From contig NC_017034.1 in the NCBI RefSeq assembly GCF_000251105.1, forward strand, positions 505,350 to 537,349: 32,000 bases of DNA, in the 5' to 3' direction. The translations under genes were made by a program, and so were the position numbers. Below the pieces are notes generated by a model. It was given only the letters and a program-made list of their open reading frames with translations. It searched no databases and had not been told where the DNA came from. Within the stretch, counting starts at the first letter, position 1, and every line of letters begins with the position of its first letter. Below, piece after piece: positions 9,336-18,020 of this stretch. This stretch comes from Methanocella conradii HZ254 (GTDB lineage Archaea > Halobacteriota > Methanocellia > Methanocellales > Methanocellaceae).

Positions 9336-10808
<1,473 letters not shown>

Positions 10809-10903
10809 AACGAATAACACAGACAAGAACGACAAGAAACAAGACTCGAAAAACAACCAAACAAACAAAGACACACGACTGGGCGTGCCAACGCCTTGAA
10901 AAG

Positions 10904-10979
10904 GGGCTTGTAGATCAGCAGGAAGATCGCCGCCTTTGCAAGGCGGAGGCCCTGGGTTCGAATCCCAGCAAGTCCACCA
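10904..10979 (+). tRNA. tRNA-Ala (anticodon TGC) in the 16S-23S spacer, with encoded CCA
   Basis: GGGCTTGTAGATCAGCAGGAAGATCGCCGCCTTTGCAAGGCGGAGGCCCTGGGTTCGAATCCCAGCAAGTCCACCA. The acceptor stem pairs GGGCTTG with CAAGTCC and carries the G3:U70 alanine identity pair. The anticodon loop is CTTTGCAAG and the T-loop is GGTTCGAATCC. Confidence 0.95.
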
Positions 10980-11009
10980 AAAACAAAAACAAAAACAAAA
11001 ACAAAAAAA
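10979..11009 (+). repeat. (AAAAAC)n microsatellite directly after tRNA-Ala
   Basis: C residues fall at 10984, 10990, 10996 and 11002 within an A-run, giving a period of 6 and about four units. Confidence 0.8.
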
Positions 11010-11279
11010 TAAAAGAATATAAACGTTAAACTAATAATGTTGATCGCCCCTATAAGAGGGGCTTGTCAGTGCACCTACCCACCGCGTGGTGAGTGGGGAA
11101 GATGTTGATGCACAACAACGGGGACACGGCGTCGACGAATGATCCTCGACGAATGATCATCGACGAAGCGTCCCGGGTTGTGCGTGTGATGCTGTGTGTA
11201 TGCGAGTCTCTGGACGTAAAATTGGATTGTAATTCACGCCTCGCACATGAGGCGTAGGTGTCACAGCGTATGCTAGTGT

Positions 11280-14204
<2,925 letters not shown>

Positions 14205-14313
14205 ACAACAAGACAAAAACACAAGGTTACAATCCAATACGCAAACCAAGAGACCCGCAAACACACAGCAAAACAACAAGGACAACCACCTCTCATGTTC
14301 AACACATGACTGG

Positions 14314-14437
14314 TTTTGGCGGCCAAAGCGGCGGGGAACCACCCGGACCCACACCGAACCCGGAAGTTAAGCCCGCCCACGTACCAGGGAGTACTCGGGT
14401 ACGCGAGTCCCCGGAAAACCTGGAACGCCGCCAAACC
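14314..14437 (+). rRNA. rrf: 5S ribosomal RNA
   Basis: The terminal helix pairs TTTGGCGGC (14315-14323) with GCCGCCAAA (14427-14435). Internal conserved blocks are CCGAACCCGGAAGTTAAGCCCGCC and GAGTACT. Confidence 0.9.
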
Positions 14438-14469: not shown

Positions 14470-15024
14470 TTATTTATTGTATATCCCCTTATTTTCAATC
14501 GTCCACGTAGTTGTAATTTTTACCTTATAGGTACCATTTGGATAACTCCGATCCTCAAACCTCGTCTCAACATTAGGTGATTCCCATTTTTTCCCGACGT
14601 CTAGAGGGATGGTTTCATTGTTATAAGATAATATTATTGTACCATTATGGTTTGTTCCAATTATTTTTGCCCCTGATTCTAGTTGATAAGGATATTCATA
14701 TATTCCGCTTATATTTAAATCCCTCCACATTCCCTCAGGCATGTCGTGGGAATGATAGAAACCATACAATATTTTGAGGCTATTGTTATTTTCTACATAT
14801 TTTCCTGCACTGTCATACTCAACAATAGGGGCTGGCACGGCTTCTCTTATATACTCAAAATAACCTTCGACCACTACACCGTGATCCCAATGAATTTCCT
14901 CCACGGCAATATATTTATTAGTTGGTAATTCATTCTGTTTATTATCGCCCACTATACAACCACCAAATAAAATCGTGCACGTTAATAAAATAAAAAATAT
15001 AACTTCCAATGATGCCTTTACCAT
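14470..15024 (-). CDS. Hypothetical secreted protein or lipoprotein (AT-rich block)
   Basis: 184 aa. The N-terminal hydrophobic segment ends in the lipobox-like LFGGC. GGTGAT lies a few nt upstream of the ATG, and the gene starts 22 nt after the upstream gene's stop, so the two look like an operon. Codon usage is visibly AT-rich compared with the flanks. No family recognised. Confidence 0.6.
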   Translation of the reverse strand: MVKASLEVIFFILLTCTILFGGCIVGDNKQNELPTNKYIAVEEIHWDHGVVVEGYFEYIREAVPAPIVEYDSAGKYVENNNSLKILYGFYHSHDMPEGMWRDLNISGIYEYPYQLESGAKIIGTNHNGTIILSYNNETIPLDVGKKWESPNVETRFEDRSYPNGTYKVKITTTWTIENKGIYNK

Positions 15025-15046: not shown

Positions 15047-16039
15047 TCAAGGATGTGGCGGAGGGGAGTATCTTGGATCATATCTCGTTATGTATATATT
15101 TCCATAATACCCGTACAGGTCCCTGTAGTAATAATTCGCTACATTATCCGTGTAATATTCAAATATATGCTCGTTGTTAGGCAGATTCAACATTGACCCG
15201 GATAGGTCATAGGCATGGAAGTCCCTTACATACTTCCACGAGTTGACCATGCCAGGTCTAGGCTCTCCGTCCTCGTAATATTTTTCAAGTGCAATATCGA
15301 CATCTTTTATGTGCTCAGCTCTAGGTAGTGTAAATGTCTTGACATATGCAGTGTTCGTATCCAAGTCATATACACAGTATTCCACTCTATTGTAATTGCC
15401 ATTACCGTCTATGCCTACTGGTCTGACATAGATCATAAAATCGTGGATCGAGGGGAAATAGCACCAGTCTATCCATGGATATGCAAATGCTTTACTATAA
15501 ATTGTGAATGTTATAGTATTATCGTATCTCGTCATCTGGATACAATTTTCAGCATCACCATCCCCCCACTGGTGCATTACAAATTCTTCTTTGCCATTGT
15601 TCTCCAGATCGTATAACCAATCGACAACGCCATCTACAAACCATGCTCTTGGTCCACCATCTTTATTACCGAATCCGATATAGGTATTCGACCAGTGTGG
15701 ATCATATACCCTTGTCGGCGTAGTACTTATTGACATACTGCTTACATTACCTCTACTATACGTGTCATTATATATAAACGGTCTAGTGGCTTCTCTATAC
15801 GTTGGTTTTATATTATTCTCCCCAGAACTTTTATATTCATTATACGGCGGGAGTTTATCGGATTTACCAGTAAGGTAATCCCTAATCGCCTTTACGAGTT
15901 CCGCGTGTTCACCATACCCTGAATCTTTATCTGCCAATCCATCTATCCGGGATCGTGCACCAGCCATTCCGGGCGCTGTTATCGCTAGTATGAAAATAGC
16001 CAATATGAACAGCGCTCCAAGCTTTATATTAGTCTTCAT
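15047..16039 (-). CDS. Hypothetical secreted protein, Tyr/Asn/Asp-rich (AT-rich block)
   Basis: 330 aa. The signal-peptide-like N-terminus is MKTNIKLGALFILAIFILAITAPGMAGA and the C-terminus is YDPRYSPPPHP. No family recognised. It is preceded by leader cassette copy A. Confidence 0.65.
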   Translation of the reverse strand: MKTNIKLGALFILAIFILAITAPGMAGARSRIDGLADKDSGYGEHAELVKAIRDYLTGKSDKLPPYNEYKSSGENNIKPTYREATRPFIYNDTYSRGNVSSMSISTTPTRVYDPHWSNTYIGFGNKDGGPRAWFVDGVVDWLYDLENNGKEEFVMHQWGDGDAENCIQMTRYDNTITFTIYSKAFAYPWIDWCYFPSIHDFMIYVRPVGIDGNGNYNRVEYCVYDLDTNTAYVKTFTLPRAEHIKDVDIALEKYYEDGEPRPGMVNSWKYVRDFHAYDLSGSMLNLPNNEHIFEYYTDNVANYYYRDLYGYYGNIYITRYDPRYSPPPHP

Positions 16040-16256
16040 TCAATTCCTCCCTTACTAGCGCCGCATCGGGGAGGCTCAAACAAGGCTTTATCTATGATAA
16101 AGTCTAACTTCTCATTGCCTTCGGGTTCCTGGGCCGGTCTTCTCTGGACGGACGGCCGGACCCAGGATTAGACGACGCTCACTATACAAGCTATTACCTA
16201 CCAATATTTATAATTTCTATCACGAACTGCTAACTGTGAAAATAAGACGTTAAAAG
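16040..16256 (-). promoter_or_regulatory. Promoter plus structured 5' leader cassette, copy A
   Basis: Aligns along its whole length with 17245-17462. Read on the minus strand, the elements in order are: TTTTCACAGTTAGCAGTTCGTGA, then the TATA box AAATTATAAATAT (plus 16204-16216), then a hairpin (plus 16128-16166), then the conserved CCCGAAGGCAATGAG, then the hairpin CCTCCC/GGGAGG (plus 16046-16074) that occludes the SD, then the ATG at 16039. Confidence 0.6.
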
Positions 16257-16300
16257 CTGAAAAGATGTACAGATAGCGATAACTAAAAAACAATTACAAA

Positions 16301-16416
16301 TTTATCGGCAAAAGTGGCGATTTTTCGACCACACCGAACCCGAAAGTTAAGCCCGCCAACGATCCATCGAGTACTAAGGTATGCGAGTCCTTGGGAAAAC
16401 GGAACGCCGCCAAACC
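16301..16416 (+). pseudogene. Degenerate second 5S rRNA copy (5S-like pseudogene or orphan)
   Basis: Collinear with the 5S gene at 14314-14437. Identical blocks are CACACCGAACCCG, AAGTTAAGCCCGCC, GAGTACT, GCGAGTCC and GGAACGCCGCCAAACCA. Several helices are disrupted without compensation: helix I is TTATCGGC against GCCGCCAA; ACTAA replaces the ACTCG that pairs with CGAGT; and the helix II/III region is shortened. Confidence 0.6.
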
Positions 16417-16496
16417 AACCAAAAACAAAAAAACACATCTGAAATAAATTTTACAATTGGGACAATAGATTCCTCCAGTCATATACCTGAAAAAGA

Positions 16497-16898
16497 CTAT
16501 ATTGGCGATGTGGACAAGTTCGCATTATCGATATCGATTACCAGTTCATTCCTTCCGTCAACGATCGCGTAAGCTTCTATTTTTTTGCTTGAGCCGTCAA
16601 ATTTAAACCGGTATATCGTGTTTAGTTTTATAGTTTCATTTGCCGATGGGGGAGAACTGTCCTCACCAGTACTACCGGAAATGACATCTAAGCCCTTAAT
16701 TTCCTTTGCTGAGCCAAAATCCACACATCTGATATTGAGATAAGTCCCACTTGCGTCGCTGGTCTTATTTGCTATGAATGCCGGCGGAATATATACGCTG
16801 CCGTGTCCCGCGAGCCAGGCATTTACCGTATAAACAATTAATATGAACAGTATAAACAGTAAGGTAGCGCATGCCATCATTTTAATATCTACTTTCAT
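16497..16898 (-). CDS. Hypothetical membrane-anchored or secreted protein (AT-rich block)
   Basis: 133 aa with the N-terminal hydrophobic segment ACATLLFILFILIVYTVNAWLA. The SD-like AGGTGAGG lies directly upstream of the ATG. No family recognised. Confidence 0.55.
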   Translation of the reverse strand: MKVDIKMMACATLLFILFILIVYTVNAWLAGHGSVYIPPAFIANKTSDASGTYLNIRCVDFGSAKEIKGLDVISGSTGEDSSPPSANETIKLNTIYRFKFDGSSKKIEAYAIVDGRNELVIDIDNANLSTSPI

Positions 16899-17001
16899 AA
16901 CCTCACCTATATGTTACGATTGTATGATCCATAAAAATAAAAACGTAGAAGTCATTTATATTCATTTATTTCCGCTACTTCTCCGGTCATTGCATCAATC
17001 G

Positions 17002-17244
17002 TTACACTTCCTCCATGATATCGTCTTTAGGCTCGCCGAGAACATCTACGATCCAGGCGACTTTTTGCTTTTCATCCGGTGTGTATATGACGTTTAGCGT
17101 TGCATCAGCTCTGGCAACAGAAATGTTATCAAATTGGGCAGATGCGATCGTTATGGCTTTATCTTCAGTTGCGAAAGCTTCGGGGATGCCTGTTACTCCT
17201 AATAGCATGTAAAAAAATAAAATCGTCACTATTCTTTTCGTCAT
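17002..17244 (-). CDS. Hypothetical small secreted protein (AT-rich block)
   Basis: 80 aa with the signal-peptide-like MTKRIVTILFFYMLLGVTGIPEAFA. It is preceded by leader cassette copy B. Confidence 0.5.
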   Translation of the reverse strand: MTKRIVTILFFYMLLGVTGIPEAFATEDKAITIASAQFDNISVARADATLNVIYTPDEKQKVAWIVDVLGEPKDDIMEEV

Positions 17245-17462
17245 TTTCTTCTCCCCTCTATAGCGCCGCTTTCAGGGGAGCTCATAGGCTGAATTTATAT
17301 ATGAAATCCCAACCCCTCATTGCCTTTGGGCACCTGTGTCCGGTCTTCTTTCCAGGGGCCGGACTCCGGGATTTGACGGCGCTTGTATAGCAAATTATTA
17401 CTAAGCAATATATTTATAATTTCTCTCATGAACTGTTAACTGTGAAAATAAGATGTTAAAAG
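17245..17462 (-). promoter_or_regulatory. Promoter plus structured 5' leader cassette, copy B
   Basis: Paralogue of 16040-16256. It has the same order of conserved blocks and the same TATA box (plus about 17409-23). Its hairpin core is GTCCGG/CCGGAC (17338-17364). Its SD-occluding hairpin is CTCCCCT/AGGGGAG (17251-17280), with the loop core GCGGCGCTA conserved. Confidence 0.6.
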
Positions 17463-17546
17463 AGATATGCCACAAGGCTTAAGCCCCGCATCCAATCCTG
17501 TCAATCGCAAACTTCTTATCGAATCCTCTTATAATTTCATACAGCT

Positions 17547-18020
17547 ATGGATTTAAACGATATAACGAGAGACATCGAGCGCATCGGGCTTCCGAAGCGC
17601 CCTCGCGAGAGAATGCCTGACTTATCAGTAAAATATGGCAAGGTCAAGGCTTTAATATTTAGATTGCTGGCGTTATCGCTATTGGCGGTCATAGCGGCCT
17701 TCAGCATCCTCGTATTATCGCACTACAGGTCCTCCATAATGGCGCTCATCGTTTTAGTTTATGTGGTTCTGGGAGGGCTCCTGGCGTATAAGCTCTTTAG
17801 CCTTACGTATACTGGGTGGGTCTACACATTTTTCCTCTCATTGGCCGGCGTGATCCTGCCTTTGCTCGCCCTCGCCACCAGGGGCTTTTCCAATCCAGCG
17901 TTGACGATGGGGGCGGCGGCCGTATTCATTTTATCAGTCATATCGGCCGCCCTGCTGTGGTGGGCCAAAGACCTCCTGGGGATAAAAAGCTATAAGGATG
18001 TCTTCACGCCTTACGCCTGA
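17547..18020 (+). CDS. Hypothetical integral membrane protein
   Basis: 157 aa. A charged N-terminus is followed by about four hydrophobic helices. The TATA-like CTTATAATTT lies about 20 nt upstream. No family recognised. Confidence 0.55.
   Translation: MDLNDITRDIERIGLPKRPRERMPDLSVKYGKVKALIFRLLALSLLAVIAAFSILVLSHYRSSIMALIVLVYVVLGGLLAYKLFSLTYTGWVYTFFLSLAGVILPLLALATRGFSNPALTMGAAAVFILSVISAALLWWAKDLLGIKSYKDVFTPYA

Follow-up and report, generated by a model that had tools for sequence, protein, structure and literature searches.

A structured mRNA leader family with a Shine-Dalgarno-sequestering hairpin in Methanocella-type methanogens

To our knowledge, natural cis-acting translational switches are scarce in archaea and consist of a few bacterial-type riboswitch classes and of repressive leaders in which L7Ae recognizes a kink-turn (K-turn). 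Archaeal L7Ae binds K-turns in 5′-UTRs and regulates translation (PMC5539422, PMC6298567), and the known leaders of this kind are those of the l7ae and nop5-fibrillarin mRNAs (Daume et al. 2017, PMC5539422; Huang, Ashraf and Lilley 2019, PMC6298567). They are short stem-loops upstream of L7Ae and box C/D genes, in which the K-turn hairpin itself occludes the Shine-Dalgarno (SD) sequence, so that L7Ae represses. Among the translational ON riboswitches with an SD-sequestering platform is the add adenine riboswitch of Vibrio vulnificus. K-turns are also contained in the SAM-I, lysine, c-di-GMP-II and T-box stem I leaders, where they are static and do not compete with the expression platform.

Here we describe a leader element that occurs twice in a 32,000-nt stretch of the Methanocella conradii HZ254 genome (NC_017034.1, positions 505,350 to 537,349; hereafter the window). 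It represents a new family of structured leaders equipped with an SD-sequestering platform and belongs to no described family. Unlike the L7Ae leaders, it consists of a ~150-nt multi-helix domain with a long-range helix (P1), and the genes behind it encode secreted orphan proteins.

Two leader copies and the genes behind them

The window contains a 16S-tRNA-23S-5S operon at 9336-14436 as well as the GatD and GatE genes. Between the 5S gene of this operon and a gene for a 157-aa membrane protein lie two minus-strand operons of small signal-peptide proteins, of 330 and 184 aa (copy A) and of 80 and 133 aa (copy B). Each operon is preceded by a ~200-nt block, with 81% identity between both blocks. 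The promoters, SD arms and regulated ORFs are arranged as follows.

16218..16256, minus strand: type I promoter block of copy A with tandem ACAGTT/GCAGTT, 92% identical to copy B over 53 nt
16206..16217, minus strand: BRE/TATA-like element GAAATTATAAAT of copy A, its 3′ end 26 nt upstream of AGCG
16046..16051, minus strand: SD GGGAGG of copy A, 3′ arm of the hairpin, from the sequence and the 16S 3′ end (CCUCCU)
15047..16039, minus strand: regulated ORF of copy A, 330 aa, orphan, with signal peptide; followed by the 184-aa ORF at 14470-15024
17412..17462, minus strand: type I promoter block and BRE/TATA of copy B, from the sequence and its similarity to copy A
17251..17257, minus strand: SD-containing arm AGGGGAG of copy B, from the sequence and the hairpin in homologues
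17002..17244, minus strand: regulated ORF of copy B, 80 aa, a deletion-fusion remnant; followed by the 133-aa ORF at 16497-16898

NCBI assigns protein homologues to Methanocella conradii. The assembly contig L093 (GCA_030019315.1) is syntenic with the window, and the neighbouring proteins are 97-98% identical. The 80-aa ORF at 17002-17244 matches a 240-aa protein (L093:2259-2981) with its N-terminus and a 278-aa protein (L093:2997-3833) with its C-terminus, and both of these genes are intact in L093. Hence, a deletion removed most of both genes in the window and left the leader intact. Between the two leader operons, outside of the rRNA operon, lies an additional 5S rRNA gene (window 16301-16415, plus strand) with counterparts in L007 (7747-7862, minus strand) and L093 (7072-7192, minus strand). 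It scores 85.9 bits in L093, 58.2 in L007 and 38.5 in the window, compared to 87.4 for the operon's own 5S gene (14315-14436). The low window score points to decay of a duplicated 5S gene in this lineage.

In each of the two promoter types driving the leader, a TATA-like box is located 24-26 nt upstream of AAGCG. Given this distance and the start-site spacing generally known from archaeal promoters, P1 probably begins at the mRNA 5′ end, and transcription of copy A would start around 16180-16185. The promoter block CTTTTAAYRNCTTATTTTCACAGTTARCAGTTCRTGAKAGAAATTATAAAT (window 16206-16256 and 17412-17462, minus strand) is 92% identical, more conserved than the leader itself. The copies L093a-d and L007b have it in common, whereas it has diverged in L098; the remaining leader copies are driven by another promoter (..TTTATATACAGCCAAATAAATGCTT..). 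Judged from its sequence, the ACAGTT-repeat block is a candidate site for a transcription factor, and control would then be exerted at two levels.

The downstream genes consistently encode signal-peptide proteins, often followed by CarboxypepD_reg-like partners. Because the leader lies ahead of at least four unrelated families of such proteins and behind two promoter types, it behaves like a portable cis-regulatory module. The regulated proteins had no sequence match in Pfam, NCBIfam or PDB, and homologues of the 330-aa protein were found only in Methanocella. Two AlphaFold models, with pLDDT values of 38.6 and 45.6, were too poor for a fold search.

Directly upstream of both operons, the leader can hide the ribosome-binding site. 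Copy A (16046-16074, minus strand) reads CCUCCC-cgauGCGGCGCUaguaa-GGGAGG followed by aauuga-AUG, with 17 nt between the arms, and copy B (17251-17280, minus strand) reads CUCCCCU-gaaaGCGGCGCUauag-AGGGGAG followed by aagaaa-AUG, with 16 nt between the arms. The resulting anti-SD:SD hairpin of 6-7 bp ends 6 nt upstream of the AUG in both leaders. The host 16S rRNA ends with ...GAUCACCUCCU, in which CCUCCU complements the SD sequence; the upstream arm is an internal mimic of this 16S 3′ end, paired to the SD. The distance from GCGCU to the AUG is 17 nt in both copies, and the arms therefore align without gaps. Between copies A and B, two adjacent pairs are swapped in a compensatory manner (C-G to U-A and U-A to C-G) and a third is gained (C.A to U-A). 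Hence, the observation of the initial annotation that the change in the SD is matched by a change in the anti-SD arm holds, as two compensatory exchanges plus one gained pair.

A bare 4-bp CUCC..GGAG arrangement occurs 22 times in the window compared to 16 expected, which is not above chance. A 6+6 arrangement within 8-30 nt is expected ~0.09 times per 32 kb, assuming uniform base composition. Folded as single sequences, the leaders showed no significant extra stability over shuffled versions (z = -1.2 and -1.9). Because 4-bp hairpins are common by chance and the single folds are not significantly stable, the case rests on the homologues.

Homologous leaders and their common helices

We scanned metagenomes with the pattern GAAGACCGGN{1,25}AAGGCAATGAG and obtained 60 matches, of which three were true homologues and 57 were chance matches; a fourth homologous leader was found on reading one of these three loci. 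A covariance model built from six copies (R1) was then run on loci reached via the downstream protein families and via the 157-aa neighbour gene. In total, we identified 11 distinct full-length copies scoring 104-165 bits with R1 in assemblies and metagenomes related to Methanocella; L093 alone contains four of them within 8 kb. The window contains no further copies beyond A and B. A scan of the GTDB representative genomes with CCCRAAGGCAATGAGNNNTTRG gave 26 matches, all bacterial or due to chance, and no extra copies; the three matches in viral sequences (IMG/VR) were all negative with R1. The leader family is so far known only from Methanocella-type methanogens.

The suggestion that the motif matches no known family was borne out by Rfam 15. 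At the gathering threshold, only rRNA, tRNA and 5S were matched in the whole window, and at E≤10 the region 15900-17600 yielded, besides the 5S-like gene, just a fragmentary chance match to sR39. Text searches of the literature found no description of such a leader motif.

The 157-aa gene, used as an anchor to reach more lineages, added only one diverged leader (L098 9708-9860, minus strand; 22.9 bits), which occupies the syntenic site in a lineage farther away, where the 157-aa protein shares 55% identity with that of the window. This leader keeps P2, P4 and a K-turn-like top strand (AAUGC-AAC-GA) and lacks the anti-SD and the P1 3′ strand; its 5′ strand GUCUUAU pairs instead with AUAAGAU at the annotated AUG. 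Most other contigs reached in this way end in the rRNA operon or have another gene at the leader site. The metagenomic contigs L096, L100, L101 and L102, which carry GatE/157-aa genes, stop 84-180 nt upstream of the 157-aa gene, and L100/L101 and L102 enter rRNA-operon spacer or 5S sequence there. In these three, the rRNA operon consequently adjoins the 157-aa gene without a leader-operon insert. In another assembly (L087), the M. conradii homologue of the 330-aa/184-aa pair is present without such a leader. Upstream of it lies a perfect 13-bp hairpin CAUGAGACACAGC...GCUGUGUCUCAUG followed by GGCCAAAAAGGCAGGCC (~9789-9830, plus strand), which may be an unrelated or replaced regulatory structure.

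The helices recovered from the comparison are located in the window copies as follows, 5′ to 3′ within each leader.

16172..16179, minus strand: P1 5′ strand AGCGUCGU of copy A, pairing with 16057-16064, from the RNAalifold consensus and covariation
16128..16166, minus strand: P2 of copy A, CCUGGG-U-CCGG ... CCGG-CCCAGG, with a conserved loop 3′ half AGAGAAGA
16111..16127, minus strand: junction AACCCGA and putative K-turn bulged strand AGGC-AAU-GA-G of copy A, the most conserved block; its GGC can alternatively pair with the preceding CC as small P3
16078..16110, minus strand: AU-rich hairpin P4 of copy A with the core CUUUAUC-AUA-GAUAAAG, NC helix of the proposed K-turn
16069..16077, minus strand: putative K-turn non-bulged strand GA-GCCU of copy A, overlapping the anti-SD CCUCCC (16069-16074)
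16057..16064, minus strand: P1 3′ strand GCGGCGCU of copy A, initially taken as a loop core, from RNAalifold and covariation
17376..17383, minus strand: P1 5′ strand AGCGCCGU of copy B, from RNAalifold and the alignment
17333..17370, minus strand: P2 hairpin of copy B, from fold and alignment
17316..17332, minus strand: junction UGCCCAA and putative K-turn bulged strand AGGC-AAU-GA-G of copy B, from the sequence
17284..17315, minus strand: P4 hairpin of copy B, from fold and alignment
17274..17283, minus strand: putative K-turn strand GA-GCU(C) of copy B, overlapping the anti-SD CUCCCCU (17274-17280)
17262..17269, minus strand: P1 3′ strand GCGGCGCU of copy B, from sequence and alignment

Folding of the homologues by RNAalifold recovered a multi-helix leader. 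Without any hint given, the program paired the presumed loop core with AGCGYCGU at the extreme 5′ end of the conserved block, forming P1. It further predicted three hairpins, of which P2 is long, P3 tiny (GCC-CGAA-GGC) and P4 AU-rich and variable. P1 closes a domain of ~120 nt that comprises P2, the small P3, P4 and a near-invariant AAGGC-AAU-GA-G ... N-GA-GCCU core. In the 11-sequence model alignment, 87% of the cells of this nested structure are paired, compared to 32-42% with slid partners, and nine pairs are changed on both sides, a number reached by none of 500 shuffles. With the SD helix added as a pseudoknot, these values become 87.8% and 13 pairs. All of these counts stem from few, closely related genomes, and identical halves in some copies point to gene conversion, so that the 11 copies are not independent.

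P1 alone, which joins the loop core to the leader 5′ end (AGCGYYGU), has 94% of its cells paired. It covaries as AGCGUUGU/GCAACGCU in L093:4604 and as AGCGUCGU/ACGAUGCU in L091, and its fifth pair alternates between U-A, C-G and U-G. Compensatory changes in P2 replace UCCGG/CCGGA by UCCAG/CUGGA in L007b and CCUG/CAGG by CCCGG/CCGGG in L010 and L091, and in P4 five of the 12 pairs are changed on both sides across the homologues. All 11 copies have the anti-SD:SD helix; its length is 6-8 bp and its energy -6.7 to -13.3 kcal/mol, and orientation and distance are constant, the 3′ arm ending 5-7 nt from the AUG. For this helix a second covariance-model alignment (R2) replaced the MAFFT alignment of the 3′ tails, which was out of register; here, 89% of the cells are paired and four of the eight pairs are changed on both sides. 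The SD helix crosses P1 in a pseudoknot topology. The linkers measure ~4 nt from the anti-SD arm to the P1 3′ strand and mostly 5-6 nt from there to the SD arm. An all-against-all search for column covariation indicative of additional tertiary pairs was too noisy with 11 sequences and gave many spurious covariations.

The comparison of the 11 copies thus shows, at the level of sequence, that P1, P2, P4 and the anti-SD:SD helix are real. It confirms two claims of the initial annotation, the SD-pairing hairpin itself, found in both window copies and in 11 of 11 homologous leaders, and the covariation of its stem in a structure-aware alignment. The loop core stated there to be identical is so between the two window copies and varies in the homologues (GCGGCGCU, ACGACGCU, ACGAUGCU, GCAACGCU). 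Its reading as a conserved loop has to be abandoned, because the pairing and covariation with the leader 5′ end identify it as the 3′ strand of the long-range helix P1. Of the whole element of ~150 nt, the SD hairpin described before thus represents just the 3′ fifth.

A putative kink-turn and a two-state model

The best-conserved block of the leader is AAGGCAAUGAG, with a mean column identity of 0.98. Together with N-GA-GCCU beyond P4, it matches the sequence signature of a simple K-turn, for which we used the definition and folding rules from PMC6298567. The signature consists of a C-helix AGGC:GCCU with C:G at -1b:-1n, the 3-nt bulge AAU, tandem G.A/A.G pairs, a variable 3b:3n position and the covarying P4 as NC helix. 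It is canonical in nine of the 11 copies, including both window copies; the deviants are L010 (1n = C) and L093:4604 (1b = A). The C-helix has 4 bp in nine copies, four pairs with one G.U in L093:2155 (GCUU) and 3 bp in window copy B (GCU). Three C-helix pairs beside the bulge match Haloarcula Kt-7 (GGC/GCC). The invariant top strand leaves no room for covariation in the C-helix, and the signature alone is not rare, with seven matches in the window compared to 3.1 expected. From the arrangement in the leaders we infer that the invariant strands flanking P4 form a K-turn.

In L010 (9486-10648, plus strand, and 9337-9488), the leader, the sole copy with the A-to-C change at 1n, precedes a gene split into ORFs of 77 aa and 284 aa, in place of the single ~380-aa protein of its relatives. 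This leader/gene pair may be a pseudogenising copy. We also considered a three-codon upstream ORF, AUG AGN NNU UAG, that several copies contain within the core (window 16103-16114, minus strand). It was rejected, since L093:4604 has lost the AUG and both window copy B and L007b have lost the stop; probably it merely results from the sequence of the K-turn and P4. A role of the conserved core as target of a trans-acting RNA was likewise considered, and a gene for a complementary RNA was not found in the window.

The GCCU segment opens the anti-SD element GCCUCCC and is at the same time one strand of the proposed C-helix. This overlap suggests a two-state switch, in which GCCU would pair either with AGGC (ON) or with AGGU (OFF). 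The SD hairpin would be the OFF-state helix of a bistable ~150-nt 5′ leader controlling translation initiation. In the OFF state, GGC would be held in small P3, and GCCUCCC would pair with GGGAGG(U), hiding the ribosome-binding site. In the ON state, P1 would close and AGGC:GCCU would build the K-turn and a three-way junction, setting the SD free. In constrained folds, the P1-enforced and the SD-hairpin-enforced structures are -4.7 to +2.1 kcal/mol apart in nine of the 11 copies, and the AGGC:GCCU pairing arises unprompted in five of the P1-enforced folds. Mutually exclusive pairings involving the SD, as in riboswitches, are thus present in the predicted structures.

The SD helix with its 6-8 bp outweighs a C-helix of 4 bp, so that an outside stabiliser should be required for the ON fold. 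Since archaeal L7Ae is known to bind K-turns in 5′-UTRs and to regulate translation, a protein of this family is the most economical candidate. An L7Ae-type protein, which in this leader would activate translation, is, by analogy, our best guess for the effector; the chief alternative is a small ligand bound in the junction. The bistable leader with a K-turn-driven ON switch and preferably an L7Ae-type effector is accordingly the model we favor, tentatively and with confidence somewhat short of even. We hold more doubtful the wider proposal of an effector-driven translational ON switch in which the K-turn and three-way junction strip the anti-SD from the SD and thereby control a secreted or cell-surface regulon, although it is a serious possibility. 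Several points speak against the model: P1 might form together with the SD helix in a pseudoknot rather than alternate with it, the C-helix lacks covariation, the signature is common with two copies deviating from it, and diverged L098 has neither the anti-SD nor the P1 3′ strand. Moreover, L7Ae is abundant and constitutive, so that the signal it could carry is hard to see. The K-turn, the two-state logic and the effector are what we infer beyond the helices themselves.

If this model is true, the leader would represent an undescribed class of archaeal riboregulator, stabilised by L7Ae or a ligand and coordinating a small Methanocella regulon, and the first natural case in which formation of a K-turn competes with an anti-SD and thereby activates translation. 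Uncharacterised secreted proteins of rice-field methanogens would become accessible through it, and archaeal synthetic biology would gain a new part. The element is compact, present in multiple copies and divisible into P1, K-turn strands, anti-SD and SD. Should the SD hairpin alone hold up, Rfam would still gain a new family of structured leaders.

Alternative readings and comparison with known systems

The initial annotation had left open whether the hairpin belongs to a riboswitch platform, a thermometer or a protein-operated switch; the predicted behaviour is that of an expression platform, and the strong, perfect stems make a thermometer unlikely. A metabolite- or ion-sensing riboswitch, in which the three-way junction of P1, P2 and the K-turn with P4 is the aptamer, the K-turn is architectural and ligand binding stabilises P1 to free or trap the SD, is an unlikely reading that nevertheless deserves weight. 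The leader is a covarying multi-helix domain with conserved unpaired nucleotides, as seen in only 11 related sequences, with invariant junction nucleotides (CCCGA, AGAAGA, AAGGCAAUGAG), an expression platform with near-isoenergetic alternatives, and a position ahead of unrelated genes. Against this reading stand the extremely narrow distribution, the missing Rfam match and the orphan secreted beta-rich and CarboxypepD_reg-like genes, among which no transporter or enzyme points to a ligand.

A constitutive structured leader is somewhat less probable still. Here, P1 and the SD helix would form a pseudoknot that damps translation and/or stabilises the mRNA 5′ end without any effector. Both helices are conserved in the same molecules, and P1 at the extreme 5′ end could shield the mRNA from 5′-3′ exonucleases. 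The linkers of 4 and 5-6 nt do not strictly forbid a pseudoknot, but they are short for crossing a P1 of 8-10 bp. Furthermore, a hairpin that damps translation could do without a ~100-nt domain bearing invariant unpaired nucleotides, nor would it explain why GCCU has two conserved alternative partners, AGGC and AGGU.

It is quite improbable that the leaders have no RNA function and are the residue of a recent duplication or gene conversion of promoter-plus-leader cassettes, with incidental SD/anti-SD complementarity. Some copies do share identical 5′ halves and promoters, the genomes are few and related, and the region is changing, as the deletion-fused ORF and the additional, decaying 5S gene indicate. 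However, divergent copies keep all helices by compensatory changes while the P4 and linker sequences drift, and the leader is kept behind two unrelated promoter types and ahead of unrelated ORFs. Least probable of all is an RNA thermometer whose SD hairpin melts at higher temperature: the SD is paired beside the AUG and Methanocella species range from mesophilic to moderately thermophilic growth, but the stems are G+C-rich, perfect over 6-8 bp and reach -6.7 to -13.3 kcal/mol even with loops of 16-23 nt, lack the mismatches typical of ROSE or fourU, match no Rfam thermometer and leave the large upstream domain unexplained. The static pseudoknot, the thermometer and the non-functional duplication are thus less likely than the L7Ae or small-ligand readings.

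Compared with ROSE and fourU thermometers, the leader shares the pairing of the SD in a hairpin just upstream of the start codon; it differs in its strong and perfect stem, its conserved alternative pairings and the conserved ~120-nt domain upstream, since a weak and imperfect SD hairpin does not make up the whole element. Like the SAM-I, lysine, c-di-GMP-II and T-box leaders, it would place a K-turn, predicted here, in one arm of a multi-helix junction of a cis-regulatory leader, but it matches none of them in sequence or structure. The add riboswitch is similar in that closure of the junction by P1 competes with an SD-hiding helix and that the folds are nearly isoenergetic. In the Methanocella leader, however, the P1 3′ strand is not the anti-SD itself and lies in the loop of the sequestering hairpin, and the family is archaeal, of narrow distribution and absent from Rfam 15. 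The L7Ae leaders have in common with the Methanocella element the location in an archaeal 5′-UTR, the simple K-turn signature with a 3-nt bulge and tandem G.A/A.G beside the ribosome-binding site, and a conformational change, predicted for our element, that decides on SD accessibility. In the Methanocella leaders, which do not belong to l7ae or nop5 genes, the putative K-turn strand overlaps the anti-SD and not the SD, and K-turn formation should therefore release the SD and activate translation.
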